Virus record (IMG/VR): IMGVR_UViG_3300045988_180880
Span: 288,001-352,000 of that record
DNA from: a virus
Strand: one strand, 5' to 3'
DNA: 64,000 nt
The position numbers were made by a program, and so were the translations under genes. Below are positions 1,672-53,616 of the stretch, in pieces. The number at the start of each line of letters is the position of its first letter. The stretch's first letter is position 1. Below the pieces are notes generated by a model. It ran no database searches. It worked only from the letters and a program-made list of their open reading frames with translations, and had not been told where the DNA came from.

Positions 1672-2037
1672 ATGATAATTAAACGTAAATTATTTGCTTC
1701 TAATGATCCCACTCCAGAACAGTCTCCAGAAATTGGTCTAGCTAAACAAGAAATGACTTCTAAGGACTTGCAAATAGAACAAATGAGACTTCAACGTCAA
1801 ATCCTAGAAACTCAGAGAATGCGACAGAGAATGCAAGCTGAGGAAAGAATGCAAGAAATGAAGCAAGTCAATCAAACTCAGAAACTAGAACAGAAAAAGG
1901 ATGAAGCTCAAAAAGATAATCAATTAAAAGTAAAGAAAATTGACGCTCAGAATAGTAGGCAGGAAGTAAATAATATAGGATTGTACAAAACAAAATCAAA
2001 GCCTACGCCAACAGTATCAATGAAAACAAACTTGTAA
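1672..2037 (+). CDS. Leader-tagged (MIIKRKLFA) Q/E/R/M-rich coiled-coil protein
   Basis: ORF track. N-terminal family leader, then charged heptad-like sequence. Confidence 0.6.
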   Translation: MIIKRKLFASNDPTPEQSPEIGLAKQEMTSKDLQIEQMRLQRQILETQRMRQRMQAEERMQEMKQVNQTQKLEQKKDEAQKDNQLKVKKIDAQNSRQEVNNIGLYKTKSKPTPTVSMKTNL

Positions 2038-2130
2038 GATTATGATTAAAGAAAAGACATTTACAGAAGGAGTGGAAGATTCTAAAGAACAAGAAGAGAA
2101 AGGATTTGATCCACTAAGACCGTATATAAA

Positions 2131-2364
2131 ATGAAAATTAAAAGATTTTCCGGTTATTCAGAAGCTGCCCCTGAAGGTGTAACTTATCAAAAATCAAGTC
2201 AGGTAATTACAAGATATATTCTTGATCCTCTTGATTCTAGTGTAGATACCTTAGAAGAAACAGATAAACTTGGGGTAACTAAACGAAAGAGTGATAGAAT
2301 TAAGAAGGTAATAAAACCTCTTAAAAAATATTTTAAATATAAATCAAATAAAAACAGTAATTAA
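2131..2364 (+). CDS. Leader-tagged (MKIKRFS) small basic protein
   Basis: ORF track; its ATG overlaps the upstream mini-ORF stop (ATGA). Confidence 0.55.
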   Translation: MKIKRFSGYSEAAPEGVTYQKSSQVITRYILDPLDSSVDTLEETDKLGVTKRKSDRIKKVIKPLKKYFKYKSNKNSN

Positions 2365-2366
2365 GT

Positions 2367-2951
2367 ATGTATATTAGACGTAAAGTATTCTCATTACTAC
2401 AAGATGAGACAGGAGAAGAGAGATACTTCTCTACTACTGATGTAACACTGGAAAATGAGGAAGAGAGAACCTTTAGTGTTGCAGAAGATGCAGAAAGTTT
2501 GGAAGAAAAGGATTTCTCTGATAAAAAAAAAGAGGAAGATGATGAGCCAAAACTTACAACTAGTGATAAGATTAATATTAAGTTGAATAAAGCTCTGATT
2601 ACTAAGAAGGATCGCGAAGCATTTGTTGAAGCTTATGAAGATGGAAAATCTCATAAATACGGAAAACAGGCAGCTAAGTATGCAGCAATTGGTAATGGTA
2701 TAGGTGGCGGTATATTAGGTGCTGCAGTTGGTGGTAAAAAGGGTGCAGCTATTGGAGCCGGAATTGGCGCTGTTTCAGGTGCAGCAGGATCTTATGCTGG
2801 TACTAGAGCAGGTGTTGCACTTAATAAGCTTGCTAGAAAACATAGTGGTAGTCTTGATACTAAAACAAAATTAGCAGTAGATCGAGTAAAAGTAGCAGAT
2901 GGAAAAATGACAAAAGAAGAATTTGCTAAAAAATGGAGATCTAAGAAGTAA
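2367..2951 (+). CDS. Leader-tagged (MYIRRKVFS) protein with glycine-zipper segment
   Basis: Leader plus internal xFS sites (RYFS, RTFS, KDFS). Gly/Ala-rich stretch IGNGIGGGILGAAVGGKKGAAIGAGIGAVSGAAG. Confidence 0.6.
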   Translation: MYIRRKVFSLLQDETGEERYFSTTDVTLENEEERTFSVAEDAESLEEKDFSDKKKEEDDEPKLTTSDKINIKLNKALITKKDREAFVEAYEDGKSHKYGKQAAKYAAIGNGIGGGILGAAVGGKKGAAIGAGIGAVSGAAGSYAGTRAGVALNKLARKHSGSLDTKTKLAVDRVKVADGKMTKEEFAKKWRSKK

Positions 2952-2960
2952 AAGAAATAA

Positions 2961-2995
2961 TCTATAGAGGTAGTGTAATCAATCTCCTCTATAGA
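2961..2995 (+). terminator. Stem-loop after CDS 2367..2951
   Basis: 10-bp perfect stem TCTATAGAGG/CCTCTATAGA with a 15-nt loop; no clear T-run follows. Confidence 0.35.
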
Positions 2996-3096
2996 ACAAA
3001 CGCGCTAGATTTTTACAACCGAAGATTAATCGCACTAGGTGCAAAAAGTAAACGGTTGATAGTTGTAAAGCGCGAGAACTATAAAATAATAAATGT

Positions 3097-5388: not shown

Positions 5389-6372
5389 ATGAAAGTAAAA
5401 AGATTTAGTAAATTAGATACTCTACAAGATTCTATAAAAATTGTAAGTAAGAAAACAGGAGAATCTCTCACAATAAATAGATTTAAATCTTTTGTAGATA
5501 TTCTTGGAAAATTTATTAAGAGACTTAGAGAATGGAGTAATAAGAGACCGTCATTTGATATTTACTTAGGTTCTGAGAAAGTAGCAGAATTAAATCTTAT
5601 AGAAAAGTCCAAAGAAGAATTAAATATAATGTGGATTGAAACTTATGAAGATTATAGAGGTAAAGGATATTCTCAGGCTATTCTAACAGAGTTGATTAGA
5701 TTTGCTAAGTCTCAAGGTTATAAATATGTTACTCTTGAAGTGCCTGGTAGATCTCCTGATGCTAGACATATTTATGAGAAGCTTGGATTTAAGGATGATG
5801 GAGTCTTGACAACCCCAGAAGAAGATTTTTATTGGGGAGGTCTTACTAGAATGAAACTTAAATTGTTTGCAAATATTACTAATGTAACAAGTTTAACTCC
5901 ATTGAAAAATATAATAACAACTACTACTAGAAAAGCTACCGGACTATCTAATTCTAAAATAGCAACACAAGCAAAGAATGCAGCATTAGATTTACACTCT
6001 GTAACTAAAGATGCTCAAAATTCTTTTATATCTCCTAATGGTAATGGATATGTAACTAAAAGTTATTTTACTAAAAGACGTCCTAAAGGAAAGAAAGTTG
6101 AGTTTGTAGGAGATTTATTTGGGAATCCTAATCAATTACAGAAACCGAAAGTTATTAATAGCAGCAGTAGTAATAAAGGAGGAAATTCTTCAATTAGTAG
6201 TTTAGATGCTAAAAGAATGAATTTAAAACGGTATAATTCTCATAAAACAAGATCTTTGGAAGTAACACCTACTGCACCTGGACAAAATGAGTGGGTTAAA
6301 CGTGTAAAAACTAATGGACAAGCTAGGTGGGAAAATAATGGGTTATATATTCCTGGTTTTGAGAAATTATAA
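5389..6372 (+). CDS. Leader-tagged (MKVKRFS) GNAT-family acetyltransferase with basic C-terminal extension
   Basis: GNAT acetyl-CoA motif A-like sequence YEDYRGKGYSQAILTELIRFAKSQGYKYVTLEV..ARHIYEKLGF. Confidence 0.6.
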   Translation: MKVKRFSKLDTLQDSIKIVSKKTGESLTINRFKSFVDILGKFIKRLREWSNKRPSFDIYLGSEKVAELNLIEKSKEELNIMWIETYEDYRGKGYSQAILTELIRFAKSQGYKYVTLEVPGRSPDARHIYEKLGFKDDGVLTTPEEDFYWGGLTRMKLKLFANITNVTSLTPLKNIITTTTRKATGLSNSKIATQAKNAALDLHSVTKDAQNSFISPNGNGYVTKSYFTKRRPKGKKVEFVGDLFGNPNQLQKPKVINSSSSNKGGNSSISSLDAKRMNLKRYNSHKTRSLEVTPTAPGQNEWVKRVKTNGQARWENNGLYIPGFEKL

Positions 6373-8849: not shown

Positions 8850-9218
8850 ATGATAATACTACGAAAACAAAAATATAAAGAACTTCCCTGGACCAAAGAA
8901 AATATAGAAAAATATAAGTCACAGGAGAATATGTTAAAGCACGCAAGAAATACACCAGGAAAAACGGCTGGAAAATTATTAATAAACCCAGCCAAAGATG
9001 AGTTGGTGGGATATATAGCGTGCGAAGAAGATACTATTATTGCTCTAGAAGTTTCTCCGGGGTATAGAGGAAAAGGAATAGCAACTGATTTGATAAATTC
9101 TTCTGGGGCTAATAAACTTACAGTATCAAAGAAAAATATAAATGCGATAAATTTATATAAGAAACTTGGATTTGAAATTATATCAGAAACTCCAAAAATA
9201 TATTTTATGGAGAAATGA
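8850..9218 (+). CDS. Leader-like (MIILRKQKY) small GNAT acetyltransferase
   Basis: VSPGYRGKGIATDLI...INLYKKLGFEII matches the GNAT motif A/B pattern. Confidence 0.6.
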   Translation: MIILRKQKYKELPWTKENIEKYKSQENMLKHARNTPGKTAGKLLINPAKDELVGYIACEEDTIIALEVSPGYRGKGIATDLINSSGANKLTVSKKNINAINLYKKLGFEIISETPKIYFMEK

Positions 9219-9322: not shown

Positions 9323-9640
9323 ATGTTGAGAGTTAAAAGATTTAGTAAAGTTACTGATAAAGTTAAAGAAATAGGAAAATCTATTGAACATACAGTAACT
9401 CATCCTAAAGAAACTGGTAAGAAGGTGGTGGAGTATGTAAAGAAACACCCAGATGAAGCTATAATTCTTGGGACATCTGATATTGTTCCTGGAGTTGTTG
9501 CTGCCAAACTTGCAAAAGCTGGAAAAACAAAACAAGCAGCTATCGCAGGAACTATTGCAGCACTTCCTATTGGTGGTGCATATGTATCAGGGAAAATAGC
9601 TATTCGAAAATGGAATGAAAAAAGAAAGAAGAATAAATAG
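9323..9640 (+). CDS. Leader-tagged (MLRVKRFS) small protein with Gly/Ala-rich hydrophobic segment
   Basis: ORF track; sequence GVVAAKLAKAGKTKQAAIAGTIAALPIGGAYVSG. Confidence 0.55.
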   Translation: MLRVKRFSKVTDKVKEIGKSIEHTVTHPKETGKKVVEYVKKHPDEAIILGTSDIVPGVVAAKLAKAGKTKQAAIAGTIAALPIGGAYVSGKIAIRKWNEKRKKNK

Positions 9641-11347: not shown

Positions 11348-11569
11348 ATGAAATTTATTGCAAAATTGTTTTCGACAATGCTACCTGCATCTGACAGTAG
11401 TATGATACCTCGAGATGTTGCGGAATCTTTCTTTAGTAGCCAAGAGTTTAAACAAGCCTTAGAGGATAGAAAGCTCTTTGGAACATTAACACACTTAGCC
11501 AGAAATCTATCATCTGCCAAAAATGGTGGTCCTGCAGTATCTAAGACTATAGGGAAAGATGATCTCCTT
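11348..11569 (+). CDS. T4 gp21-like prohead protease, exon 1
   Basis: Begins MKFIAKLFS (leader-like). FGTLTHL aligns with T4 gp21 LGELNHP (catalytic His). Donor CTCCTT| (CCUU pairs with GAGG, directly before P2). Alternative donor at 11576. Confidence 0.55.
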
Positions 11570-11760
11570 TATTGCTAATAATGAGAGGCATAGATAAAAA
11601 GTTTATGAAAATGTTTTTAATTGCTGGAAAAAATAATAAATTAAATCAGCAAAAATAGATAATAAAATCTATTTCTCAACGACTAGAGTAAACACTAAGA
11701 ATACCGATTAATTCTTAGATAATATAGTCTATTATTGATTTTAAAATCAATTAGGTTAAG
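11570..11760 (+). ncRNA. Group I intron, family A (A3)
   Basis: P2 CATAGA/TTTATG, P AATTGCTGGAAA, Q AAATCAGCA, P6 ATAGAT/ATCTAT, R TTCTCAACGACTA, S AATATAGTCT. 3' end at G11760; alternative G11770. Confidence 0.7.
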
Positions 11761-11949
11761 TTATTAATTGGCGAAAGTTCACCTACACATGTGTTAACTA
11801 AAGTTTGGTTCGAAAATGACGGCTGGTGCTATGGGGAGTTTGAGGTTCTCTCCGAAGATGGCCTAGACGATGAAGCTATACAAAGAATCAGAAGAGTAAA
11901 GGGCCTTCTTAAAAATGGTTGCAAAATTGGAATTTCCTGTGTCGTTCTT
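11761..11949 (+). CDS. gp21-like prohead protease, exon 2
   Basis: THVLTKVWFENDGWCYGEFEVLSE and KIGISCVVL align with gp21 IIIEDMWWKGNDVYGRARVIEG and GVSSRGLG (catalytic Ser). Not in the ORF track (no ATG). Confidence 0.6.
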
Positions 11950-12132
11950 TAATTAACTGAGACTTAAGAAATTCATAAGTTCTTAAGAAAATTTCATAAA
12001 ATGCTGGAAAGGTTAGAATCAAATCAGCATCATCTAGCAGATAGCGAGATGTTCAACGACTAAAGATGGAACCTAGATTTTTAGGATAATATAGTCTAAA
12101 TTTAATAGCAAGCAATATATTAAAAAAAATTG
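11950..12132 (+). ncRNA. Group I intron, family A (A4)
   Basis: P1 TCUU/GAGA, P2 CTTAAGAA/TTCTTAAG, P AAATGCTGGAAA, Q AATCAGCA, R GTTCAACGACTA, S AATATAGTCT. G12132 is the only in-phase G; tail ends AATTG|. Confidence 0.8.
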
Positions 12133-12756
12133 GGATATTGGGAAAATTCTAGCGGAAGTGACTATTTAAAGCGTATGGTTGCGCTAAAAGGGGCTGACCT
12201 TACATTAAACCCTTCTTGGAAAAATGCGGGTATAGTTTCAATTGATGGTTCTGAGAGCGAAAAAACATTCTCTGAACTTGATATAGAGTATGATCCTGAA
12301 GCTTATAAGGATACAAAAATAAAAGTTAAGCAATTTTCTAACTTCGATTCGGGAGATTTATTAAAGTCTTCTAAGATTAATGGAAAGTTTACGCAATTAA
12401 AAGCTAAATCATTTTCATTTAATTCTGAAATAAATTCAATAGAAGATACTATCGTTAGTGAATCTGTAATAGAAGAACCTATTCAAAAAGATTTCTCAGT
12501 TGCTACAGTTAAAGAGAGAGTTAGAATTGGAAAGATGTCCCCTCGCCAAAGATTTCGTCTACTTGTTTTAGAATATAAGCAAGCAGTAAAACAAGCTGGT
12601 GGTTCTGAAAAGATGGATCCAGAAACACTTAAAATCATGAAGTCTTTGTTTACTACAGATCTTTTGGATATTATGAAGTCGATTACACCAGAAATCATGA
12701 ATGGAAAAAATCCAGGAACATTACTTGGTGCTTCTAGTTTAGGTAAGAATGTACGT
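12133..12756 (+). CDS. gp21-like prohead protease, exon 3 (plus scaffold-like extension)
   Basis: GYWENSS..KGADLTLNPSWKNAGIV aligns with gp21 GVDAVWGPSAPDAWV. Internal xFS sites (KTFS, KQFS, KSFS, KDFS). Donor GTACGT| (ACGU pairs with GCGU). Confidence 0.6.
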
Positions 12757-12930
12757 AAATAATATGCGTTTTTTATATGAATTGCTGGAAATATCTAAAT
12801 GAGATAAATCAGCATCAAATCATACTTAGATAAATCTAAAGAAGTGATTTGTTCAACGACTATGTATATAAACTGTCAAAATAGACAGAAGATATAGTCT
12901 AAATTATAAATAAATTTTATAAATACATTG
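12757..12930 (+). ncRNA. Group I intron, family A (A5)
   Basis: P AATTGCTGGAAA, Q AAATCAGCA, R GTTCAACGACTA, S GATATAGTCT (12891-12900). Tail ends CATTG|, P10 TAT/ATA. Phase 0 on both sides. Confidence 0.8.
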
Positions 12931-13137
12931 ATAAGTGTACAAAAATTGTTCTTACCATATAAGATGGCTATGTCTGAGGTATCTAAAACTAATGCAATAT
13001 CTAAGGCAAGATATCAAAAAATTCAAGCTGCTTATTCTGACTTTGTTAATGCAATGTTAGAGGAAATATTCGCGCCAAAGAATGGTACGAAGAAAGAAGA
13101 GCCAGTAGAAGAAGAAAACCCTGAAGAAAACAGTTAA
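12931..13137 (+). CDS. gp21-like prohead protease, exon 4 (C-terminus)
   Basis: ISVQKLFLPYKMAMSEV...EENPEENS*. The track's TTG start at 12928 is intronic. Confidence 0.55.
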   Translation: MSVQKLFLPYKMAMSEVSKTNAISKARYQKIQAAYSDFVNAMLEEIFAPKNGTKKEEPVEEENPEENS

Positions 13138-13143: not shown

Positions 13144-14037
13144 ATGAAAGTAGAAAGACGTAAATTATTCTCTTCTTCGATTTCTCCACGGCGCAAGTTA
13201 TTTTCAGGTGGAGTAACTCAGGCAGAATATAAGAAAATTCAGTGTAGAGATTGTGGTTATATTATGGATACTTTAGCCACTACAACTAACTTCTTATGTC
13301 CTAAATGTGGAGCTGTAAATAGATTTAATGTTTTAGAAGTTACACCAAGTCCTGAAAATACTCCTGAAGCTGTACAAGTCGAAGTATCAAAAATTGAAGA
13401 AGTAGAAAAAGGATTCTCAAGACGTTCGTTATTCGGCGGAGATAATAATGCCGCTGTACAAAAAGAATTTTCAGAACCGTCGAACGAATTTGAGGTAAAA
13501 TTAAAAGAATTTTCTGGCAAAACTTTAAATGAATCAGAAGTTGTTAAGGCATTTGGTATTTCCGCCGAAGATTTAGTTGAAAAAGGTTTTGCTAGTATTG
13601 ATGAAGATAATAAAGTTACTATTCCTGAAACTGCATTCTTACAATCTAAATTATTCTCTAAGTTAATCGTATCAGTGACTAAGATTTTGGATTTAGACCC
13701 AATAGAAGGACCTAAGGAAGACATAATTAATATGTTAGAATCTAAAGGATCTTTAGGACCGAAAGGTATAATGCTAATTAAAAAAGCTCATTCTCTTCCA
13801 CTTGAAGAAATGAAAGAAGTTGAGTTCTCTAGCACTGAAGAAGTAGAGGATTGGATTAAAGATTCTGGAATTATTGGAGACTTAAAGATAGAGTTTGGTA
13901 ATTCTGCAATGGGAATTAAAGAATTTACAAAGATCCTAGAAGAGAGATATGATGATGCTCCAGATAATATAATAGATATATTAATTGATCGTGGAGTAAT
14001 CAAAATTCAAGGAAATCAAGTTGATATAATGAAATAA
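13144..14037 (+). CDS. Leader-tagged (MKVERRKLFS) head-assembly/scaffold-like protein with Zn-ribbon
   Basis: Seven xFS sites (RRKLFS twice, KGFS, KEFS twice, KLFS, VEFS). CRDCG..CPKCG. Lies between the protease and the acidic protein. Confidence 0.5.
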   Translation: MKVERRKLFSSSISPRRKLFSGGVTQAEYKKIQCRDCGYIMDTLATTTNFLCPKCGAVNRFNVLEVTPSPENTPEAVQVEVSKIEEVEKGFSRRSLFGGDNNAAVQKEFSEPSNEFEVKLKEFSGKTLNESEVVKAFGISAEDLVEKGFASIDEDNKVTIPETAFLQSKLFSKLIVSVTKILDLDPIEGPKEDIINMLESKGSLGPKGIMLIKKAHSLPLEEMKEVEFSSTEEVEDWIKDSGIIGDLKIEFGNSAMGIKEFTKILEERYDDAPDNIIDILIDRGVIKIQGNQVDIMK

Positions 14038-40018: not shown

Positions 40019-40534
40019 ATGAACCTACTAGATATATTACTCCCACTCCCTAGACGAAGAAGAGAAAAGGAAGAATTGAAAAAACTAGAGCCAGAAATAA
40101 AAAATCTTGAAGAAAAACTTGGATTAATTGGAAGAACTGGAACAGAAGTTTATTATGATCCACTCTATGAACGAAATAGAGGAAGAAAATATGATCTTAA
40201 AGGCCGAAAGGAATACCTAGAAGACCTCAGAAAACGATTAAACAATGGGTATAAGAGTTCGAATGTAATACGAGCTAGTGGATATTTTAGTCCAGGTAAT
40301 TCTAATGAAAAAGATACTTTTAACCCAATCATAAAAGAATTACCTAAACCAAGTAAGGTAGTGTATGTAGTATTAATAAGAAAAACTATTGATATCCCAA
40401 AAACGATAAAAATAGAGAACAGTACTGAATATAAAATAAAAAGTACAAACTCTGAATGTGATAATATAGAGGATTACTATATTATAAAAGAATTGGATGA
40501 AAACGCTAAAAAATTTATTAAATCTCTAATATGA
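40019..40534 (+). CDS. Hypothetical protein (MNLLDILLP family)
   Basis: ORF track. Paralogous to the truncated copy at 41528. Confidence 0.5.
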   Translation: MNLLDILLPLPRRRREKEELKKLEPEIKNLEEKLGLIGRTGTEVYYDPLYERNRGRKYDLKGRKEYLEDLRKRLNNGYKSSNVIRASGYFSPGNSNEKDTFNPIIKELPKPSKVVYVVLIRKTIDIPKTIKIENSTEYKIKSTNSECDNIEDYYIIKELDENAKKFIKSLI

Positions 40535-41454
40535 TCATATTAAGAAAATACCCAGAGGAACAGAAAGAATTTAGTATACTTTCAGAAATATCTCAATTGG
40601 GTTTAAGGAAAGGAACGAAAAATTATATCAGGAAACAAAAAAGAGATGTGGTGAACAAATTAATTCAAAATAAACGAGATTTTCTTGCAAAAACGAAGAA
40701 GACAGAAAGAAAATTGACTAATCTTCGAAAAGAAACAAAAGAGAATGAATTAATAGCCAATAATCTGAAAAAAGAAGCTAATAGAGTAAACACTGATATA
40801 ATACCCGATAATAAATTTTCTAAACTAGTACATCAGCCTAAAGGAGATAAATCCTATATTCTCGATAAAGAAAAGAGAAATCTACTTAAGCAAATGTCTA
40901 ATGATAAAAATTTGGATAAAGCTAGTAGAGAGTTAGCCAGATCAAGTTCGGCCAAAGATGCAATTATAAATCTTAACTCTGATGCAATAGGAAAAGACAC
41001 CCCGTTTGTTGCCCATGAACTAGGTCATGTTAAAAATAGTAAAAAATCTATTAATTCTGCAATTCAAAAACTAGCTGATAAATCTAATAATAGTAAAGGA
41101 ATATTAGCTGATATTGGGAAAAGAACTATTGGAATTCAAGAAGAAAATAATGCCTGGAAAAATGGAATAAAGGATTTAAAAAAGGCTGGTGCAACGAAAG
41201 AAGAGATTAAACATGCCAAAAGTCTAGAAAATGCTGCAGTAGATACATATAGAAAAGGAAATAGTTTAAGAAATAACTTAAATGAAAAGCTATTAAATAA
41301 ATTACATCCAAAAGAAATAGATAACTATAAAGTATTTCCTGGATCTCATAAAGAAGAAAAAGATTTAATGGAACTTTTTGGAGATAAAGGAAGAACTGAA
41401 AGACAGAAATATAATTTAAGAAGAAAAATAATAAATAAAAGGAAATCTAAATAA
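40531..41454 (+). CDS. Leader-variant (MIILRKYPEEQKEFS) HExxH zinc-metalloprotease-like protein
   Basis: FVAHELGHVKN, then downstream EENNAWKNGIKDLKKAGATKEE (candidate third ligand Glu). Family shared with 42379, 46777 and 52678. Confidence 0.55.
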   Translation: MIILRKYPEEQKEFSILSEISQLGLRKGTKNYIRKQKRDVVNKLIQNKRDFLAKTKKTERKLTNLRKETKENELIANNLKKEANRVNTDIIPDNKFSKLVHQPKGDKSYILDKEKRNLLKQMSNDKNLDKASRELARSSSAKDAIINLNSDAIGKDTPFVAHELGHVKNSKKSINSAIQKLADKSNNSKGILADIGKRTIGIQEENNAWKNGIKDLKKAGATKEEIKHAKSLENAAVDTYRKGNSLRNNLNEKLLNKLHPKEIDNYKVFPGSHKEEKDLMELFGDKGRTERQKYNLRRKIINKRKSK

Positions 41455-42180: not shown

Positions 42181-42315
42181 ATGATTATAAAACGTAAACT
42201 ATTTTCTAAAGATTCAAAAGTTCTCGTCCCTTATTTTGAACCTGGCATTACTGAAACTGGTAGACGATACGTAACACTAATCACTAACGATGGAAGAAAG
42301 AAGCGGCAATATATA
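42181..42315 (+). CDS. Leader-tagged (MIIKRKLFS) 44-aa ORF, possibly a remnant
   Basis: Hand translation; below the ORF-track size cutoff. Confidence 0.35.
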
Positions 42316-42378
42316 GATCCGTATAGAAAGAGAACTAAAAAAGAATTAGAAAACTAACTTAACTTATTAATTAAAATT

Positions 42379-43177
42379 ATGATAATCAAAAGAAAACTGT
42401 TTAGTAAAAAAAGAGGAGAATAAAAACTTCAATGACACTAGTTCAAAAGCAAAAGGAACTGCTTTATATCTTGGAGGTGCGGTAGCGGGTCAAGGTATCG
42501 CTGCACCTATAATGATGAAACATATGCAAGACGAACCCTCAGAAGAATCTGCAAAAATAGCTGAAAAACTAAAAAGATTAGCTTCTAGACGAGGACATAA
42601 AGTAGATAATATTACATATACTGGAATGGGACCTGCATATCAAAATAATAAAATTTATACAAGTGGAACAAAAGCAGCTGATGTTCTTTCACATGAAATG
42701 GGACATGCTCACTATGATAAAAGAAAAGTAAAATCAGTAAGTGATGCTATTGGTAAAGTTGCTCATAAAGCTTATCTAAAAACTGGTGGAATGTTGAATC
42801 ATACAGTTCTAGCTCCTACAGCAGGAATAATAGCAGGTGTTAGATCAGGTAAAAAAGCAGCAGAAAAAGAAGCAGCCGGAGAAAAAGAATCAAAACTCTC
42901 CAGACATAGTGGATGGGCATCTGGTTTAGCTGTTCAATCTCCAGGGCTAGTATCAGAGGCTATGGCAAGTAAACATGGTCTAGATTTAATGAAAAAAGCT
43001 GGTGCCTCTAAGAAATTAATGAAAGCTAGTCGAAAAAACCTAGGTGTAGCTTTAGGAACTTATGCTGGAGTTGCTGTAACTAATGCAGGAATGTCAGAAT
43101 TAGCTAGAGGAATTGCATATAGAAAGAAAAAGAAAAAATTAGAGAAGGAAAAAGATAAAAAGAAAGATGATAAATAA
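42379..43177 (+). CDS. Leader-tagged (MIIKRKLFS) HExxH metalloprotease-like protein; frame broken at an A7 run (42406-42412)
   Basis: ATG at 42379 gives MIIKRKLFSKKRGE*. A +1 shift in the A7 run joins it to ORF-track 42512..43177 (..EENKNFNDTSSKAKGTALYLGG..VLSHEMGHAHYD..SEAMASKHGLDLMKKAGASKK). Confidence 0.5.
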
Positions 43178-46776: not shown

Positions 46777-47646
46777 ATGATAATAAAACGTAAACTAATT
46801 TTTGATAGTCCTGAACAAAGAGAGTTTGGGATTCCTTGGAAAAAGTATGCGAAATATGGAATGAGGTCTGTTAAAGACCACGGGTTAAGAAAAGGAATAA
46901 GAAAACTTCGATTTAAGATTTCTGATGATATTGATAAATCAATTAAAGCAAATGAAAAGGCTCATAAGGCTCTTGATGAATATACTAATAATACTGAATT
47001 TCCCAAACGATCAGAAGTAATGGAAGCTTTAGGTCAAGAAGCAAAGAAAAGAGGAATAGTTGTAATAAAAGGTAAAAAAGAATATAAACAGATATTGAAA
47101 GGTGGAGAAAAAATAAAACGCTCTTCTTATGATAGAAGTGAACCTTGGGCAGTTCCTAAAGAATATATAAAAAAGAAAGATATAATTAAGTATACTAAAT
47201 CTAATTTTCCAGAGGATAGAGAACTTGGAAAAGCATTATCTAAAGGAAAAGCTGTAATAAATCAAAAAGGAAGTCAGGCAGTACTTGCTCATGATATTGG
47301 ACATATTATGAATCGAAGTAAGACAAAAACAGGGATTGTATCTAAAGTAAATGATGTAACAAAATCGATTTATCAAGATAGTAGAAATAAAAAGGGATTA
47401 GGAAATTATTTACTAACTTCTGCAACAGGAAAGATTTTATTAAAAGAAGAAAAGAATGCTACTAAAAATGCAATGAGTCTTTTAAAATCAGCTAATGCAA
47501 CTCCAAATGAAATGATTGCAGCCAGAAAAGAATTAGGAGCAGATTTTGGAACATATATGCATGGTTATAAAGCAAGTAAGGGAAGAATATTAAAGGGAGT
47601 AGTAAAACCGAATAGAATAAAGAAGAAAAATAAAAAGAGACGTTAG
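46777..47646 (+). CDS. Leader-tagged (MIIKRKLIF..QREFG) HExxH-family protein with HDxxH variant
   Basis: VLAHDIGHIMN and EEKNATKNAMSLLKSANATPNE are homologous to the 40531/52678 family. The catalytic Glu is replaced by Asp. Confidence 0.5.
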   Translation: MIIKRKLIFDSPEQREFGIPWKKYAKYGMRSVKDHGLRKGIRKLRFKISDDIDKSIKANEKAHKALDEYTNNTEFPKRSEVMEALGQEAKKRGIVVIKGKKEYKQILKGGEKIKRSSYDRSEPWAVPKEYIKKKDIIKYTKSNFPEDRELGKALSKGKAVINQKGSQAVLAHDIGHIMNRSKTKTGIVSKVNDVTKSIYQDSRNKKGLGNYLLTSATGKILLKEEKNATKNAMSLLKSANATPNEMIAARKELGADFGTYMHGYKASKGRILKGVVKPNRIKKKNKKRR

Positions 47647-48112: not shown

Positions 48113-49057
48113 ATGATAATAAAAAGAAAATTATTCTCTAAGAAATTAACAGCCGAAGAGAGAAAACAGAGAGCTGCAGATCAGATTGATAAAACTCGTA
48201 AAGGAGTATCTACTGCGCATGGAATTTTAGCTGGTGGTACTGTAGCTGGGGTAGGTCTTTTAGGTTCTGATATTGCCAGAAATGAAGCTATGTATAAAGT
48301 AACTAAACAAACTAATAAACATGTAGATAAAATTAGCGAAAATTATGGTAATAAACTAGATAAGATAAGAAATACTGGAGATAAAGTTCGAGAATTGGCT
48401 AAGAAGAGATTGAAGAAAACTGGAAATCCTATAAAAGATCTTGCTAATGAACTTGATATTGATAGAAAGGTTGATTATGTCGAAAATGTCTATAAAACAG
48501 GAGCTGGAGAAGAATATAATGCTAAAATCGAAACTCTTAAAAAAGCTTCTAATAGATTAAAGGATAGAATTTCAAAGAAAGCTTCAAAGAGAAATAAGAA
48601 GATCTTGGTAGGAGCAGCTTTATTAGGAACAGCGGCGGGATTAGCTTCAAACCATTCAATGAAGAAACGTGCAGAAAAACTTAGAGAGAATAAATTTTCT
48701 AAGGCTGATAATGATTTAGATGAAGAAACATATCTTGGGATGTCAGAAGAATTTGATGATTCTAAATTCTCTCGAAAGTCAGATAAATGGCTTAAAGAAA
48801 GAGCTAGATATAATGAAGGTTTGACTGATAGAGAGAAAAAGAATATAAAGAAGACTGCTGCTAAAGCGATGATAGGTTTAGGTGTGACAGGAGCTTCAAT
48901 TGGATTAGCTAAGAAATTATCTTTAAAAAGAGGTTTAATAGGAGCTGGAATCGGTGCTGCTACAGGTGCCGGAATTGCTGCAGCTGCACATCTTCATCAT
49001 AAATCAGAAGCAAGAAAGGCTCGTAAAGAATTAGAGCGTAGAGAAAAAGAAGATTAA
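48113..49057 (+). CDS. Leader-tagged (MIIKRKLFS) coiled-coil protein with Gly/Ala-rich hydrophobic segments
   Basis: ORF track, 314 aa; contains ILAGGTVAGVGLLG and GLIGAGIGAATGAGIAAAA. Confidence 0.55.
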   Translation: MIIKRKLFSKKLTAEERKQRAADQIDKTRKGVSTAHGILAGGTVAGVGLLGSDIARNEAMYKVTKQTNKHVDKISENYGNKLDKIRNTGDKVRELAKKRLKKTGNPIKDLANELDIDRKVDYVENVYKTGAGEEYNAKIETLKKASNRLKDRISKKASKRNKKILVGAALLGTAAGLASNHSMKKRAEKLRENKFSKADNDLDEETYLGMSEEFDDSKFSRKSDKWLKERARYNEGLTDREKKNIKKTAAKAMIGLGVTGASIGLAKKLSLKRGLIGAGIGAATGAGIAAAAHLHHKSEARKARKELERREKED

Positions 49058-49847: not shown

Positions 49848-50103
49848 ATTTCTTAAGGCAGATGGAATAGAGAATTATACATTGAGTTCTCTTAAAGCTC
49901 TTAGGGAATGTTATGAGAATTTTCTTGATACTACTGAAGGAACTGATCCAGACTTCCCATTACTTAATTTTGGTGGTAAGAAGGGACAGAGGCTTAAGGG
50001 TATATCAGCAGCACAGCGCCAAGCCTACTATGAATCTGAAGCTGAGAGAAAAGAAATGATGGGTGAGGGAGGAATAATAAATGTAAACATTTTAGACTTA
50101 TGA
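49822..50103 (+). CDS. Hypothetical protein overlapping the 3' end of 49086..49847 in the +1 frame
   Basis: ORF track (ATG at 49822). Its stop overlaps the next ATG (ATGA). Confidence 0.4.
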   Translation: MDLKFYLNKFLKADGIENYTLSSLKALRECYENFLDTTEGTDPDFPLLNFGGKKGQRLKGISAAQRQAYYESEAERKEMMGEGGIINVNILDL

Positions 50104-50887
50104 TTATAAAACGTAAATTATTTAGTCAGAAAAAAAAGAATCTGATGACAAACTTAAGAGGGCCGCATCAATAGCCGGAGGAGCGGTAGTTACTAAAGAA
50201 GGATTGAATATACTAGATAATGTACATCAATCTGGAGAAGTATCTGGTAGGGTTAGATTATATCATGGAACTACTAAGAAAAATAAGAAGAAAATACTAG
50301 AAGAAGGTTTGAAAGGTGAAAAAGCTCTTACTAGTGATGCTATTACTAATTAAAGAATAGGTGATGTTGGTAAAAAGTTTGGGAAGAAGATAGTATATAC
50401 TGGAAAAAAGAGAGCGCCAGCGATTGACATGATAGTATCTCACGCAATGAATGCTGAAACACCTTCTATGGTTAGGATGTCAATTCCCTACAAAGAGTAT
50501 CAGAACATGAGGTCTAGGAGAGTATATGAGAATCCTGAATTTACTATCGCTCACAATGCAAAAACTAAAAAAGAGTTTGCTGAGGATATGAAGAATAATA
50601 TATTTCATCCAATGACTAAGAGAGAAGCTAATAAATATTATGATAAGTTTTCTGGTGCTAAAGGAACTTCTGGAACAAGAATTTTTGAAGGTGATATTGA
50701 ATCTAAATATATAAAAGGAGGAAAAGGTTATCAAAAAAATTCTATCAAAGAGGTTGGAAAATATATTAAAAAGAATCCTAAACGTTTTGCTAAGGGTCTT
50801 GGAAAAGCTTCTCTTGGTGCTGGATTAATTGCAGGAGGAGCGGCATTAGCTATCAAAGGTGGAAAAAAGAAAGATAATACTGAATAA
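50100..50887 (+). pseudogene. Leader-tagged ART-fold paralog, disrupted (A_AAA_AAG shift site plus in-frame TAA at 50351)
   Basis: MIIKRKLFSQKKK, then the -1 frame reads ESDDKLK..GRVRLYHGTTKKNKKKILEEGLKG..AITN*, then in the same frame RIGDVGKKFGKKIVYTG.. which continues into ORF-track 50429..50887. Confidence 0.55.
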
Positions 50888-50965: not shown

Positions 50966-50967
50966 TT

Positions 50968-51897
50968 ATGATTATTAAGAGAAAATTATTTTCTAAAAAA
51001 GAAGATAATAAGAAATTAAAAGAAGGAGTAGGATTATCTTCTATTATAGGAGGTGGATATTTAATTTCTAAATCAAATAATAAAGGAGATTTAACAGGAA
51101 GGCATAAATTCTATCATTCAACTGAAAAGAAGAATGTTAAATCTATTTTAGAAAGTGGTCTTAAAGGTTCTAAAGCATTAGAGGATGGAAACTTTACAAA
51201 TTCATTTCTTCATGGTGCCGGAAAAGATGATGGAAGGGAGTTAGTATATTTAGCAAAAAATAAAAAATCAGCTAGGAATGTTTCGGATGCTAGGATTGAA
51301 GCTGGTAGAGGAAAATCAAAGACTCTAAAAGTAGAAATACCACATGAAGACTATAAAAAAATGAAAATAGCTAATGGAAATCCAGAACTAGAAGGAGCCA
51401 AAACATATAAAGAATTTCTAAATAATAGAAGTTATAGAGAGGATAATAAATATAATAGATCTCTTTGGAAAGATTTAGGAGGAGATAGGAATTCTAACAC
51501 TAGAATGATTGAAGGAAATATAGATTCTAAACATATCGTTGGTGGGAAAGGATATAAAAAATTAAGTACTAAAGAGTTAAGAGGTTATATCAAGAAAAAT
51601 CCCAAAAAATTTTTAAGAGGGGCTGGAAAATTATCTTTAGGTGTCTCCGGAGTTTATATAGGAGGAAAATTACTTCGGAATAATGCAGAAAATTCTAAAT
51701 CTAACAGTATCGATAATTCAGAAAAAATTTTAGTAAGTGCTGGAGCAATTGGATCTGGAATTAAAACTGCTAGGACTGAATTAAAGAAAGTTAAACAAAA
51801 TGATGTTATTGGTAGATCTAAAATTGACCAATTTTCTTCTGGATCTTTCAGAAAAAAAGCAAAAATCGTAAAAGATCTTGTTAAAAAGAAGGAGTAA
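50968..51897 (+). CDS. Leader-tagged (MIIKRKLFS) ADP-ribosyltransferase-fold candidate (H-Y-E, Tpt1/DarT/PARP-like); possible -1 extension to 52109
   Basis: RHKFYHSTEKKNVKSILESGLKG (H-x-[ST]...I..GL), RELVYLAKN (Tyr) and TRMIEGNI (Glu). T_AAA_AAG at 51882-51888 opens a 74-codon -1 frame that has no ATG of its own near its start. Confidence 0.4.
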   Translation: MIIKRKLFSKKEDNKKLKEGVGLSSIIGGGYLISKSNNKGDLTGRHKFYHSTEKKNVKSILESGLKGSKALEDGNFTNSFLHGAGKDDGRELVYLAKNKKSARNVSDARIEAGRGKSKTLKVEIPHEDYKKMKIANGNPELEGAKTYKEFLNNRSYREDNKYNRSLWKDLGGDRNSNTRMIEGNIDSKHIVGGKGYKKLSTKELRGYIKKNPKKFLRGAGKLSLGVSGVYIGGKLLRNNAENSKSNSIDNSEKILVSAGAIGSGIKTARTELKKVKQNDVIGRSKIDQFSSGSFRKKAKIVKDLVKKKE

Positions 51898-52111
51898 GTA
51901 ACTTTGATGATATTTATAAGAGAGCGGGAGAAGCTGTAGAAAATGATATTAATATTGAAAGAAAAGCACAAGAGAAAGGAATGAATATATTAAAAAAAGC
52001 AAAGAAATTAGGAAAACAGAAATCTATAGCAAAAGGAGCTTTAGTAACTTCTTCCTTATTAGGTGCTTATGCTGGATATAGAAAATATAGAAAAGATAGG
52101 GAGGAATAATT

Positions 52112-52594
52112 ATGAGAGTATTAAGACAAAAAGTATTTTCTTTACTAACTGAACGAATTAGAGAAGAATACTTAATAAAACCTGGAGATTTCGATAAATT
52201 TCCAAAAATCGTTCAAAATTATTACTTACAGGGAATTAATAAGGATTTTTATGATTTAATTAATCTCCAAGGATGTCATGGATTTAATCCATTTCCAACT
52301 CCAATATTAGATAAAAAACCTAATAAAGATGGATATATTCCTTTATTTGCAGAAAATCAAGATTATGCTGACTTAGATAATCCTACAGTTTACTATAAAG
52401 ATGGAGTATTATTCAAGAAGACTGGGATATTTTTCAAAAAGATAGTTCCTATGAGTGACTTGAAATTTAAGAGTTTTCTTCTCAATAGTATGATTAATGA
52501 AGATGATTTAGGTCAGGAGTGGAAACAACATCCTAATGGAAATAGGATAATAGCTCTTGAAGAAAAGATGGAGAGGAAAATTAATAGATTATAG
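52112..52594 (+). CDS. Leader-variant (MRVLRQKVFS) hypothetical protein
   Basis: ORF track, 160 aa. Confidence 0.5.
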   Translation: MRVLRQKVFSLLTERIREEYLIKPGDFDKFPKIVQNYYLQGINKDFYDLINLQGCHGFNPFPTPILDKKPNKDGYIPLFAENQDYADLDNPTVYYKDGVLFKKTGIFFKKIVPMSDLKFKSFLLNSMINEDDLGQEWKQHPNGNRIIALEEKMERKINRL

Positions 52595-52620
52595 AAAATT
52601 AATCCTCCTTAAAAACATAC

Positions 52621-52679
52621 AATCCTGGGAAAGTTTGGGATATAACTGCCCAGGAACTAAATTAAAAATAAAGAGCTAT
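52621..52679 (+). repeat. Repeat with hairpin CCTGGG..CCCAGG (copy 2), 5' flank of 52678 gene
   Basis: Nearly identical to 43345-43406. Confidence 0.7.
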
Positions 52680-53616
52680 GATTATACTATTGAAAAATAA
52701 ATCATTAACAGGGAGAGAAAAATCTATAGTAGAACAGAAAGAATTTAGCTTGCCAAGTAGTATAATGAAATCTATAAGAAATTTTATTGCTCCTATTAAT
52801 AAAAGAGATGGATCTAATAAAATAAAGAATCCATTAGTATTGTACGCTAGAGATCAGAAAGCTAGAAGAATTAGAGCAAATAGAAAACTAGGAATTGATT
52901 TAAAAACAAATGTTCCCAAGAATCCTAAGTTAAATCAGAGTCTAACAAAAGAGATAACAAAGGATGGAGAAAATTGGGTATTGGATAATAATGGCTGGTA
53001 TAAATTTCAAAATAACGTTGCGAGAGAATCAGCTGCTCCAGTAAATAGAGTTACATTAGGGATAAATAATCTTAAATATACAAAAATTTCTCCAAAAGAC
53101 TGTATAGATCTTTCAGAATCAAAAGCACTACTAGCTGCTAAAACAAAGAAAAATATAATAAACCTTGAAGGAAGTTTGTTAGATTCTACAACTCCTATGT
53201 CTCATGAATATGGACATATATTAAATTCTAAAAATCCAAGAACTAGAAAGGTAGGGATGAGAATTAGAAGATTACAGAATCAAGAAAACAAAACGACCTC
53301 TAATAGATTCTTTGGAAAAGCAAAATCTACATGGAATATTGCTAGATTAAATAACTCTATTGTTTCTGAAGAGAAGAATGCTTGGAAGAACGGAATAAAT
53401 GCATTGAAAAGAAATGGTGCTACTTCAGAAGATCTAAAGTATACTAATAAATATAAAAATGCAGCTTTAGATACATATAAGAGTAGTAGAAATTTAAAAA
53501 TTGTATCGAAAGTATATGACATGTTTAAATCAAAAAATTCGGTTAATCCAATAGAATCATTAATGAAAGATAGAAAATATAAATGGAATGCAGTAGATCT
53601 AGGGTCTAATTTGTAA
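52678..53616 (+). CDS. Leader-variant (MIILLKNK..EQKEFS) HExxH zinc-metalloprotease-like protein
   Basis: PMSHEYGHILN and EEKNAWKNGINALKRNGATSED. Closest paralog is 40531..41454. Confidence 0.55.
   Translation: MIILLKNKSLTGREKSIVEQKEFSLPSSIMKSIRNFIAPINKRDGSNKIKNPLVLYARDQKARRIRANRKLGIDLKTNVPKNPKLNQSLTKEITKDGENWVLDNNGWYKFQNNVARESAAPVNRVTLGINNLKYTKISPKDCIDLSESKALLAAKTKKNIINLEGSLLDSTTPMSHEYGHILNSKNPRTRKVGMRIRRLQNQENKTTSNRFFGKAKSTWNIARLNNSIVSEEKNAWKNGINALKRNGATSEDLKYTNKYKNAALDTYKSSRNLKIVSKVYDMFKSKNSVNPIESLMKDRKYKWNAVDLGSNL

Follow-up and report, generated by a model that had tools for sequence, protein, structure and literature searches.

Shared N-terminal leader across the locus

The window analysed here, a 64,000-nt stretch of DNA, comes from the Jug phages, a published but uncultured clade of human-gut jumbo phages predicted to infect Bacteroides or Phocaeicola (PMC12880540). 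It encodes about 25-30 small proteins, unrelated to one another, that begin with the same short basic peptide, a tag that the Jug phage clade papers do not mention. The 27 such peptides listed by the first-pass annotation each translate as quoted at their coordinates on the + strand, where all features described below lie. The leader terminates in the core [K/R]-x-[F/Y]-[S/G/T], with a P1' preference of S>G>T. The motif [KR]x[FY][STG] was found within the first 14 residues in 18 of the 69 genes as compared to 1.6 ± 1.25 (maximum 7) in composition-preserving shuffles, and with the limit set at 26 residues 24 starts were canonical and seven were leader-like and non-canonical.

The form MIIKRKL[FY][STA] occurs eight times. 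It opens a 121-aa coiled-coil-like protein (1672..2037, MIIKRKLFA with Ala at P1'), a 137-aa Gly-zipper protein (22491..22904, MIIKRKLFT), a 153-aa protein (28920..29381, MIIKRKLYS) and, as MIIKRKLFS, proteins of 58 aa (42181..42357) and 314 aa (48113..49057, with a Gly/Ala-rich segment) as well as the genes at 42379..43177, 50100..50887 and 50968..51897. The product of the last has 309 aa and an ..FYHST.. motif, and 50100 is its paralog with an ..RLYHGT.. motif. Both 42379 and 50100 are real genes with the frame broken in A7/A8 runs just past the leader; 50100 carries an A8-run frameshift and one in-frame stop, while the ortholog of 42379 in L007 is intact with 264 aa. A variant, MIIKRKLIF, begins the 289-aa protein at 46777..47646 (MIIKRKLIFDSPEQREFG), which is a paralog of two HExxH proteins with long leaders, 40531..41454 (MIILRKYPEEQKEFS; HELGH, residue 162) and 52678..53616 (MIILLKNKSLTGREKSIVEQKEFS; HEYGH, residue 176). 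The latter two start with MIIL[RL]K, as does a GNAT acetyltransferase of 122 aa at 8850..9218 (MIILRKQKYK; Pfam Acetyltransf_7, E 9e-10) that was absent from the earlier list.

Shorter leaders were found at 2131..2364 (MKIKRFS, 77 aa), 5389..6372 (MKVKRFS, a 327-aa GNAT acetyltransferase; Pfam Acetyltransf_1, E 9e-9; PHROG acetyltransferase), 9323..9640 (MLRVKRFS, 105 aa) and 20950..21174 (MMIVKRFS, 74 aa). Leaders of the FRQK type open proteins of 236 aa (20243..20953, MIKFRQKEFT) and 397 aa (29378..30571, MTKFRQKQYT, Gly-zipper near the N-terminus). The remaining tagged genes encode a Gly/Ala-rich protein of 121 aa (18075..18440, MASTFRLKRKLYS; the start is 18075, not 18000, and orthologs begin MASTF[RT]LKRK..), proteins of 82 aa (18443..18691, MATYKLKRKNFG), 123 aa (30568..30939, MIVPRIRYFS) and 160 aa (52112..52594, MRVLRQKVFS), and a Gly-zipper protein (21156..21443, MARYRLKRKCYN) whose ortholog leaders end ..KTFG or ..KIYG. 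The protein at 2367..2951 (MYIRRKVFS), Gly-zipper in its C-terminal part with a weak Gly-zipper Pfam match, has the further sites RYFS, RTFS and KDFS within the acidic first 50 residues, which makes 4 sites where 0.14 would be expected. The list is extended by 14057 (MKNTRFMEVLFS) and by a possible tagged gene at 30964..31395 (MADMISKNLDKANRLYS; ..NRLYS, site at residues 14-17).

P1' is non-canonical in the leader-like N-termini of 19875..20246 (MINFRKKKYL, with orthologs likewise lacking the F/Y-S ending), 21463..22494 (MIKFRQKEFF, 343 aa), 21156, 8850 (the Acetyltransf_7 match, E 9e-10) and 22919. Those at 19875, 21463 and 8850 count against reading the leader as a tag that is cut. The leader placed at 23216 is present as sequence but is not an N-terminal start, in keeping with the word "internally" used by the first-pass annotation itself; it is the RKDFS (residue 105) of a 317-aa ORF (22919..23872) which also carries KKIFS at residue 89.

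Beyond the leader the tagged proteins share no similarity except in the paralog trio 40531/46777/52678; for the putative ART-like protein, the best support is a sub-threshold Tpt1/KptA match. Conservation at the peptide level was confirmed: the upstream 70 nt are unrelated, and the MIIKRKLF copies use different synonymous codons at every position after the ATG (Ile ATA/ATT/ATC, Arg CGT/AGA, Leu TTA/TTG/CTA/CTG, Phe TTT/TTC, Ser TCT/AGT), which indicates that selection acts on the leader peptide. It is therefore very improbable that the peptide is functionless and that the shared N-terminus reflects common descent, gene conversion of 5' ends as a mobile cassette or a translation-initiation/mRNA feature, the last of which presumes a host not using Shine-Dalgarno sequences. 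The AT-rich and Lys-rich leader codons, the few genes with a Shine-Dalgarno sequence, the location of leader genes in swappable cassettes and a G9 element common upstream of three of them (42134-42142, 48064-48072 and 50925-50933, ahead of 42181, 48113 and 50968) would fit such an origin, but most copies have unrelated DNA upstream, the motif is also enriched at positions distant from start codons, neither the capsid protein nor the tail genes carry the leader, and ortholog leaders vary in length while keeping the motif.

A secretion, lipoprotein or membrane-targeting signal, as might be suggested by the basic N-terminus and by the Gly/Ala-rich, mildly hydrophobic segments further downstream in several tagged proteins, is hardly credible. 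The basic stretch is not followed by a hydrophobic h-region, the lipobox Cys is absent, the maximum 19-residue Kyte-Doolittle value is <1.6 in nearly all tagged proteins with higher segments far from the N-terminus, and many of the proteins, such as GNATs and coiled coils, are plainly soluble. Explanations by a secretion signal and at the DNA level fail.

Prohead protease and motif-rich head genes

The gene order at the head locus is protease, two multi-site proteins and capsid protein. Homology and an AF2 model delineate a prohead protease gene (11348..13137) with a gp21-like N-terminal domain, a disordered linker and a helical C-terminal domain. Three mini-introns split it into four exons (~11348-11569, 11761-11949, 12133-12756 and 12931-13137, ± 6 nt), as the intact homolog P0094 aligned to it by tblastn in four collinear pieces; the orthologs in L090 and L084 are unbroken. 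Pfam and PDB sequence profiles did not recognize the protease. In the PDB the AF2 model of the family matched T4 gp21 best (5jbl, prob 0.99, TMt 0.51), at a Foldseek E-value of only 0.015, and it gave 20 BFVD matches at E<=1e-3 (best down to 8e-8) led by the annotations 'Peptidase U9, T4 prohead protease' and, in Tenacibaculum phage PTm1, 'prohead core scaffolding protein and protease'. The homologs in alignment A1 show no variation at H51 and S137. As modelled, the 11348-13137 product is a T4 gp21-like prohead-protease fold, which upholds the earlier claim of a nearby gp21-like protease. Its N-terminus does read MKFIAKLFS as noted before, but relatives have MDVKVRCCS or MRCKCKVLS in a modelled beta-strand, and it is probably not a leader.

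The protease linker, where AF2 pLDDT falls below 50, holds 4-5 copies of the core motif (4 against 0.22 expected), with KTFS, KQFS, KSFS and KDFS in exon 3. Four K-x-F-[ST] sites stay nearly unchanged among 30 homologs (~40% identity) within the otherwise hypervariable linker, and the most distant relatives (E 1e-30 to 1e-52) have 2-6 sites clustered at residues ~163-260.

The [KR]x[FY]S motif totals 57 occurrences against 14.6 ± 3.7. A 297-aa protein in scaffold position (13144..14037) with a CxxC..CxxC zinc ribbon starts with the tandem sites MKVERRKLFS-SSISPRRKLFS and has eight [KR]x[FY][STG] sites in total (strict sites 6 against 0.23 expected); its orthologs have 6-7, of which 2-3 are tandem N-terminal copies. 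The 785-aa core protein that follows (14057..16414) is very acidic (D+E 214, K+R 55; net charge ~-159) and carries 14 [KR]xFS sites against 0.22 expected (p<0.0005), arranged as KEFS..KFFS..RLFS triplets within repeated modules, with 10-13 sites in orthologs. In both multi-site proteins column-wise site conservation is only modestly above baseline (0.77-0.90 vs 0.56-0.72). The candidate major capsid protein (16497..17945, 482 aa) was assigned by synteny and by BFVD, where the best matches of its model carry the annotation major capsid protein (E 3.6e-19, at a model pLDDT of only 50). It contains two candidate maturation sites, KMFS (residues 37-40, nt 16605-16616) and KTFS (residues 60-63, nt 16674-16685), and K37/F39/S40 and K60/F62/S63 are invariant. 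The protein has 579 homologs, of which the best 120 are all >=80% identical.

This enrichment and distribution show a recognised motif but not the chemistry occurring there. [K/R]-x-F-S might escape cleavage altogether and serve as a short linear motif for binding to a head component (the capsid interior, the portal or the protease), its copies in the acidic protein providing multivalent binding and the N-terminal ones a permanent cargo anchor. The additional conserved M-I-I-K-R-K part also suggests binding. We regard this as rather unlikely, as in every protease family member the sites cluster in the disordered stretch that joins the protease domain to the C-terminal one, the classic autoprocessing layout of T4 gp21 and SPN3US gp245 (PMC9026906, PMC10052503), those of the capsid protein lie at its N-terminus, where T4-type propeptides come off, and the P1' residues are small (S>G>T), as is typically seen at scissile bonds.

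Conservation among related phages

The tag system is kept in relatives with proteases merely 35-50% identical, and L091 (GC 35.5%) and L092 (GC 40.6%) have the layout and leaders of the window. Orthologs at 30-60% identity retain the tag with drifting length, as at 1672, where the ortholog leaders are MRLKRIRSKLFS, MIILRKKTKSFS, MIILRKLFA and MIILRKKTYS, and homologs of p50968 as low as 24% identity are still tagged. In the fetched loci 146 unique leader ORFs fell into about 50 unrelated protein clusters, compared to 6-9 for controls. The tagged genes often lie within swappable cassettes.

Proposed role of the leader

We consider it fairly probable that the leader is a propeptide of the T4-CTS type whose last residues are the site cut by the phage's own gp21-like protease, and it most likely acts as a load-and-cut tag that packs cargo proteins into the capsid. 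The capsid-targeting/cleavage-tag proposal of the first-pass annotation is supported by the gp21-like fold, the motif distribution, the clade-wide retention of the tag and the failing of the secretion and DNA-level alternatives. In T4, CTSs of 10-19 residues end in the gp21 motif, scaffold proteins are multi-site and the protease is C-terminally processed (PMC9026906). The leader, multi-site core proteins and protease-linker sites found here by sequence and models match this logic, and the motif is distributed over scaffold-position proteins, protease linker and the region near the capsid N-terminus as L/I-x-E is in T4. SPN3US is matched likewise (PMC10052503). Some tagged genes (40-53 kb) adjoin baseplate/tail genes and not head genes, which counts against a cut tag.

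The leader could instead be cut by a host protease or by one of the phage's own HExxH proteins. Host processing of short shared leaders ending Phe-small has a precedent in staphylococcal phage 80alpha, whose leaders of 13-14 residues, in common with ribosomal protein L27, are removed by host Prp through a cut at F|A (PMC5744158), and HExxH is present in two tagged proteins. Such cleavage appears improbable, since the gp21-like protease family both accompanies the motif and itself contains it over the whole range, the HExxH proteins are themselves tagged and look like cargo, and Pfam found no Prp-like or other protease among the ORFs of the window. The basic KRK leader is unlike that of L27/80alpha, which counts against host Prp. 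Bacteroides and Phocaeicola are also not known to have the Prp/L27-extension system, which argues likewise.

Returning to cleavage by the phage protease, this prohead serine protease would recognise the four residues that end the leader, [K/R]-x-[F/Y]-[S/G/T]. The bond between F/Y and S is probably the one that is cut, judging from the analogous P3-x-P1 sites of T4, phiKZ and herpesvirus assemblin. N-terminal leaders have basic P4-P5 and hydrophobic P6-P8, while internal sites have acidic surroundings, and as P4-P8 thus differ the leader holds more information than a cut site alone. The preceding hydrophobic and basic part, commonest as M-I-I-K-R-K, would most probably dock cargo onto the assembling head core; this role of the KRK part is purely conjectural, with the 785-aa acidic protein as a plausible partner. 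We infer cleavage and its scissile bond, as well as targeting, packaging and ejection, from these patterns. The prohead would be built with tagged proteins alongside scaffold and core proteins, after which the protease would excise itself from its own linker, cut the multi-site core proteins up into little pieces, trim ~40-63 residues off the capsid protein and clip the 7-24-residue leaders, freeing cargo inside the head. The cargo, comprising GNAT acetyltransferases, HExxH proteins, Gly-zipper proteins and many without known relatives, would remain inside and presumably be ejected from the head into Bacteroides or Phocaeicola.

All characterised gp21-type proteases, to our knowledge, cut after Glu. 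The proteases of T4 and phiKZ are Glu-specific, whereas the specificity proposed here differs in having Phe/Tyr at P1; this counts against the proposed reading and, if true, would be a departure from the characterised gp21-type proteases.

A short basic leader on otherwise unrelated proteins

The leader pattern is confirmed and highly non-random. All 27 positions at which the first-pass annotation had read a basic N-terminal peptide translate exactly to the peptide quoted for them, and all lie on the + strand, which in this window of 31% GC holds nearly all of the long ORFs, with a Shine-Dalgarno sequence in few. Eight ORFs begin with MIIKRKL[FY][STA], one with MIIKRKLIF and three with MIIL[RL]K, including one at 8850 that had been overlooked; the leader starts of the window comprise 24 canonical and 7 leader-like forms. 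The core [KR]x[FY][STG] occurs within the first 14 residues of 18 of the 69 genes, as against 1.6 +/- 1.25 (maximum 7) in composition-preserving shuffles. Three of the 27 entries had to be reinterpreted. At 23216 the motif is present but is an internal site of the ORF 22919-23872 and not a start, and at 42379 and 50100 the leaders are present but belong to frameshifted genes and not to ORFs of 14 and 24 aa. In both genes (42379-42423 and 50100-50174, continuing to 43177 and 50887, respectively) the frame is lost in A7/A8 runs straight after the leader (..FS KKK..); the former has an intact ortholog in the related locus L007 and the latter also has an in-frame stop near 50330. This loss of frame could be an assembly error, pseudogenisation or slippage-based switching.

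The suggestion that the conservation lies at the level of the peptide was borne out by the codons. Among the MIIKRKLF copies a synonymous change was found at every codon past the ATG (Ile as ATA, ATT or ATC; Arg as CGT or AGA; Leu as TTA, TTG, CTA or CTG; Phe as TTT or TTC; Ser as TCT or AGT), and the 70 nt 5' of the leader starts are unrelated between copies, so what is under selection is the peptide, not DNA or RNA. Explanations of the leader as a DNA, RNA or translation feature fail on this synonymous variation and on the motif copies that lie internal to proteins. With the leaders stripped, an all-against-all BLASTP linked only 40531, 46777 and 52678, a single paralog trio, so simple paralogy was rejected and the tag is a short N-terminal peptide common to otherwise unrelated proteins of one phage. 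Nor does the leader behave as a Sec, Tat or lipoprotein signal, a reading that fails as no hydrophobic stretch adjoins it and no Cys stands at the lipobox position.

A DNA-repeat or promoter origin was also considered by aligning, for every copy, 70 nt upstream and 45 coding nt, and was rejected, the only common DNA being a G9 element at three genes. The window has only three G9 runs (42134-42142, 48064-48072 and 50925-50933), each about 38-48 nt 5' of a MIIKRKLFS gene and embedded in the common element G9-TA(T/A)(G/A)AAGT(T/A)TAA..TTCC, a candidate promoter, regulatory element or phase-variable tract.

The leader core recurs within head-module proteins

The motif at the end of the leader is repeated in the scaffold/core proteins and in the protease precursor. 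A scan of whole proteins for [KR]x[FY]S gave 57 sites against 14.6 +/- 3.7 expected, and the excess fell on a small number of head-module proteins. Most prominent is p14057 (14057-16414, 785 aa), with 14 sites against 0.22 expected; it is highly acidic (D+E 214 versus K+R 55, net charge about -159) and contains three repeat modules of about 110 aa, each closed by a KEFS...KFFS...RLFS triplet. The adjacent p13144 (13144-14037, 297 aa) has 6-8 sites and a tandem N-terminus, MKVERRKLFS-SSISPRRKLFS. As hhalign found no domain in common between p13144 and the protease family, 'scaffold' is used for it as a positional label only. Four sites each were found in the 12175-12762 piece of the protease gene and in the acidic N-terminal part of the 2367-2951 protein, and the 482-aa protein at 16497-17945 carries KMFS at residue 37 and KTFS at residue 60. 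The tail-region giants (31398-37454 and 54923-58447) have essentially zero sites.

Anchored motif profiles from five diverged genomes (69 unique N-terminal and 185 internal sites) gave the two classes a common core, with K/R at P3, F/Y at P1 and, at P1', Ser followed by Gly and then Thr. The N-terminal sites alone have basic P4-P5 and hydrophobic P6-P8 positions, and the internal sites lie in acidic surroundings. Column-wise conservation of the internal sites was modestly above baseline only, because the number of repeat modules differs between genomes.

Two further observations concern these proteins. Residues ~33-58 of p13144 form a CxxC..CxxC zinc-ribbon-like segment between the N-terminal tandem sites and the later ones, with weak Pfam Zn-ribbon matches (E about 5e-3). 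The p14057 ortholog in GCA_016648615.1 (849 aa) has faint EF-hand Pfam matches, which hint at cation binding.

A diverged prohead protease with motif sites in its linker

The prohead protease gene lies on the + strand in four collinear pieces (~11348-11569, 11761-11949, 12133-12756 and 12931-13137; the ORF of the first is 76 aa), separated by three inserts of ~170-190 nt (11570-11760, ~11950-12132 and 12757-12930). The first insert belongs to a dispersed repeat family of ~160 nt, with 70-82% identity to copies in relatives, and copies related to the inserts lie at 1038-1206, 3637-3806, 26754-26906, 38382-38553 and 38594-38757. They are probably mini group I-like introns of the kind reported for the Jug (jumbo gut) phages; Rfam 15 lacks a model that recognises them, its matches being 6 tRNAs only, and a search at E<=1 across 6.9-13.3 kb likewise brought up no intron model. 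The orthologs in relatives are unbroken (431 and 409 aa), and a search with an intact one returned 146 homologs, of which the best 120 were 35-50% identical (one 98%), lay on contigs of up to 408 kb and had no Pfam annotation.

His51, Ser137 and several Asp residues did not vary among 30 aligned homologs, and the hypervariable linker held the near-invariant sites EKxFS, KVKxFS, LKAKxFS and QKEF[TS]. In the AF2 model of the family member P0001 (pLDDT 72.8), a disordered linker (pLDDT below 50) that bears the motif sites joins a beta-rich N-terminal domain to a helical C-terminal one. A gp21-like protease had been proposed in the vicinity of the tagged genes, and this model agrees with the proposal: its best Foldseek match in the PDB was T4 gp21 (5jbl; probability 0.99, target-normalised TM 0.51, E 0.015), and in BFVD it had 20 matches at E<=1e-3, the best being 'Peptidase U9, T4 prohead protease' (8e-8), with the 'prohead core scaffolding protein and protease' of Tenacibaculum phage PTm1 also at the head of the list. 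The predicted structure thus has the gp21/assemblin fold. Pfam, including its Peptidase_S77/U9 model, gave no match to the spliced window protease even at E<=1, and sequence-profile searches of the PDB returned nothing for the protease profile, so we regard it as a very diverged member of that fold.

No more than 235 representatives of the family came out of an exhaustive profile search. As even its most distant full-length members (E 1e-30 to 1e-52) carry 2-6 [KR]x[FY]S sites, at residues ~163-260 just past the protease domain, the motif travels with the enzyme family; the neighbourhoods of very distant homologs, fetched as L093 and L094, were short loci. We infer that the phage's own protease recognises the motif at the leader end. 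Cleavage by another enzyme, either a host Prp-like protease as in phage 80alpha (PMC5744158) or the tagged HExxH proteins, is disfavoured, as the motif is embedded in the gp21-like family over its whole range, Pfam finds no Prp-like domain or other protease among the window ORFs, and the basic MIIKRKLFS leader is unlike that of 80alpha and L27. The start of the window protease, MKFIAKLFS, had also been taken for a leader, which proved ambiguous: the pattern [KR]6-x-hydrophobic-Ser9 is kept in relatives, but as MDVKVRCCS or MRCKCKVLS, and the segment is confidently modelled as a beta-strand. T4 gp21 likewise has a motif-like LIE at residue 9 (PMC9026906).

A candidate major capsid protein

In every genome examined the protein encoded at 16497-17945 comes after the two multi-site proteins, and the order protease, scaffold/core, major capsid is the same in the window, in four relatives (L084, L090, L091 and L092) and in GCA_016648615.1. 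It has 579 homologs, the best 120 of which are at least 80% identical, and K37/F39/S40 and K60/F62/S63 are invariant. The best BFVD matches of its model were annotated major capsid proteins (E 3.6e-19, 25% identity, full length), which lend moderate support only since the AF2 model is poor (pLDDT 50.3). Neither the PDB sequence-profile search nor tblastn against 50,697 GenBank phages returned anything for this protein. With moderate confidence we take it to be the major capsid protein.

The location of its two sites also bears on whether the motif might be a docking motif that is never cleaved. Docking would agree with the enrichment of the motif, but it fits poorly with sites that cluster in the disordered linker of the protease and at the N-terminus of the capsid protein, places better suited to cleavage.

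Relatives retain the tag while the tagged genes are exchanged

A search of IMG/VR with the back-translated leader identified dozens of loci, nearly all on contigs of 120-378 kb. We compared the window with L084 and L090, whose capsid proteins are 81-84% identical, and with L091 (GC 35.5%) and L092 (GC 40.6%), whose proteases are only 38-40% identical. All four share its layout, with leaders on most of the small genes round the head module, in forms such as MVIRRKLYS, MIVKRKLYS, MLIKRKFFS, MKLYRQKLYS and MILQRLYS. In relatives the scaffold-position protein has 6-7 sites, the acidic giant 10-13 and the protease linker 4-5, and the capsid protein keeps both of its own. Orthologs that are 30-60% identical retain the tag while its length drifts (MIIKRKLFA, MRLKRIRSKLFS, MIILRKKTKSFS and MIILRKKTYS, for example), and in one cargo family traced to 24% identity the tag was still present. 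The fetched loci together gave 146 unique leader ORFs against 6-9 in controls, falling into ~50 BLAST clusters.

Where relatives carry leader genes that the window lacks, these occupy the corresponding syntenic region as alternative cassettes, flanked by DNA of 88-99.8% identity. Different tagged genes occupy the same slot in L015 (1253-3673) and the window (46765-52608), in L014 (4587-6081) and the window (18104-18701), and in L048 (about 10017-10616) beyond window position 43324. As strains with such near-identical flanks hold different tagged genes, the cargo genes behave as exchangeable cassettes.

PHROGs and Pfam were almost blank for the structural and tagged proteins. The earlier assignments of GNATs, HExxH proteins (40531 and 52678) and glycine-zipper proteins were upheld at the level of sequence, the GNATs being at 5389 and 8850. 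The cargo family of 50100-50887, 50968-51897 and the homologs P0390-P0399 has the conserved motif GR.(K/R).YH(G/S)T......I...GL. For its description as ART-like there is only a sub-threshold Pfam match (E 0.066) to Tpt1/KptA, a member of the ADP-ribosyltransferase superfamily, while homologs of 50100 and 50968 are without Pfam annotation; if the match is real, the family would parallel T4 Alt.

Comparison with known head-maturation systems

In phage T4, gp21 cleaves behind the sequence L/I-x-E. The core proteins gp22, gp67 and gp68 end up as many fragments, gp21 is itself processed and gp23 sheds an N-terminal propeptide, and core-binding capsid targeting sequences (CTS) of 10-19 residues that end in a gp21 site are found on the internal proteins and on Alt (PMC9026906). 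The system described here resembles the CTS of IPI, IPII, IPIII and Alt in having a short N-terminal propeptide common to non-homologous proteins (10-19 residues in T4, mostly 7-13 and in a few cases up to 24 here), which ends in a motif that also riddles the scaffold/core proteins and flanks the protease domain. The predicted gp21 fold, the order of protease, core/scaffold and capsid protein, the enzymes among the cargo (Alt in T4, GNATs and HExxH proteins here) and the evolutionary plasticity of the cargo genes are likewise shared. It differs in the motif, [K/R]-x-[F/Y]-[S/G/T] without Glu at the conserved position as against L/I-x-E cut after Glu, and in the strongly basic leader. It differs also in scale, since 24 or more genes within 52 kb, and ~50 families clade-wide, bear the tag as against a handful in T4, and in a protease that lacks a Pfam Peptidase_S77/U9 match and has a long helical C-terminal domain; unlike T4, the system is known from sequence alone.

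The jumbo phages phiKZ, 201phi2-1 and SPN3US also have diverged gp21 homologs (gp175, gp268 and gp245), a P3-x-P1 motif with Ser preferred at P1', several motif copies per propeptide, a protease that loses its C-terminal propeptide and many ejection proteins kept in the head (PMC10052503, PMC5694885); in SPN3US and phiKZ the site is A-x-E (PMC10052503). They are unlike the present system in that their motif is (A/S/G)-x-E, cut after Glu, their propeptides are mostly long (111-254 residues, with only two short ones of 20 and 24), and they have no common near-identical N-terminal tag; SPN3US has only about 9 known substrates, and 42 of its head proteins are uncleaved. Phage 80alpha is alike in having leaders of 13-14 residues with a common motif on non-homologous structural proteins, cut straight after Phe (F|A), but the enzyme is the host cysteine protease Prp, whose normal role is the maturation of ribosomal protein L27 (PMC5744158). 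Its leader mimics L27 and is not a basic KRK peptide, is found on 2-3 phage proteins only and is not accompanied by multi-site scaffold proteins, and the phage infects a Firmicute.

Herpesvirus assemblin, a serine protease of the gp21 structural superfamily, has the consensus (V/L/I)-x-A|S, which is the same P3-x-P1|Ser format as the motif described here. Its P1 is Ala and not Phe/Tyr, its P3 is aliphatic and not basic, and its only two sites both lie in the protease/scaffold precursor, with no cargo tags.

As the pattern reproduces that of T4 and parallels SPN3US and phiKZ, we read the leader as a two-part propeptide. Its terminal [K/R]-x-[F/Y]-[S/G/T] would be the protease site, probably cut between F/Y and S from the shared P3-x-P1 format, and the hydrophobic and basic residues ahead of it would be the targeting part, possibly drawn to the polyanionic 785-aa core protein. 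The cargo would then be packaged into the head and later ejected, and the capsid protein would lose about 40-63 N-terminal residues, as a parallel to gp23. Several independent lines of evidence, from sequence and from structure prediction, support a tag like the T4 CTS served by a gp21-like protease, as the first-pass annotation had proposed. The system would be of the T4 type, though its motif differs, its tag is basic and its cargo set is modular and unusually large. A more far-reaching scenario, to which we give slightly less than an even chance, is that a gp21-family protease switched from the Glu-specific cut of every characterised member (T4, phiKZ, 201phi2-1 and SPN3US) to [K/R]-x-[F/Y]|S, and that modular loading arose around it in one of the most abundant phage clades of the human gut. 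Here a basic tag of 7-13 residues would dock on a giant polyanionic core protein and then be clipped, and strains would swap dozens of unrelated effector cassettes (GNATs, HExxH enzymes, possible ART-like proteins and pore-forming glycine-zipper proteins) whose products enter Bacteroides along with the injected DNA.

Assignment to the Jug phages and implications

Jug phages have genomes of 360-402 kb with about 30% GC, have Bacteroides and Phocaeicola as predicted hosts, carry in each genome some 18 mini group I introns (~206 nt) and many homing endonucleases, and have fragmented terL, portal and prohead protease genes; they reportedly make up about 1% of human gut metagenome reads, are uncultured and have genes that are almost all unannotated (PMC12880540). 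The window matches this published description in its 31% GC, a protease gene split by three inserts and the presence of HNH and PD-(D/E)XK genes, and near-identical contigs reach 378 kb. Neither that paper (PMC12880540) nor its preprint mentions an N-terminal leader, propeptide, capsid targeting or proteomics, and no paper among those searched deals with Bacteroides together with a prohead protease and a cleavage motif.

Should the tag function in the way suggested, a rule of four residues combined with a short leader would predict head-internal, probably injected, cargo among hundreds of Jug orphan proteins, and some 50 protein families would gain their first functional clue. For the capsid protein and the protease, mature N-termini would become predictable. 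The gp21/assemblin superfamily would gain a new substrate specificity, and the leader would be a candidate portable tag by which foreign proteins could be loaded into the capsids of Bacteroides phages, a use to which the T4 CTS has been put.

The head-module and cargo genes are interspersed with six tRNA genes (Thr, Asn, Ser, Tyr, Gln and Pro; 4193-5369 and 9220-9723), a PD-(D/E)XK endonuclease gene (4489-5097) and two HNH homing endonuclease genes (9879-11327 and 26877-28175).
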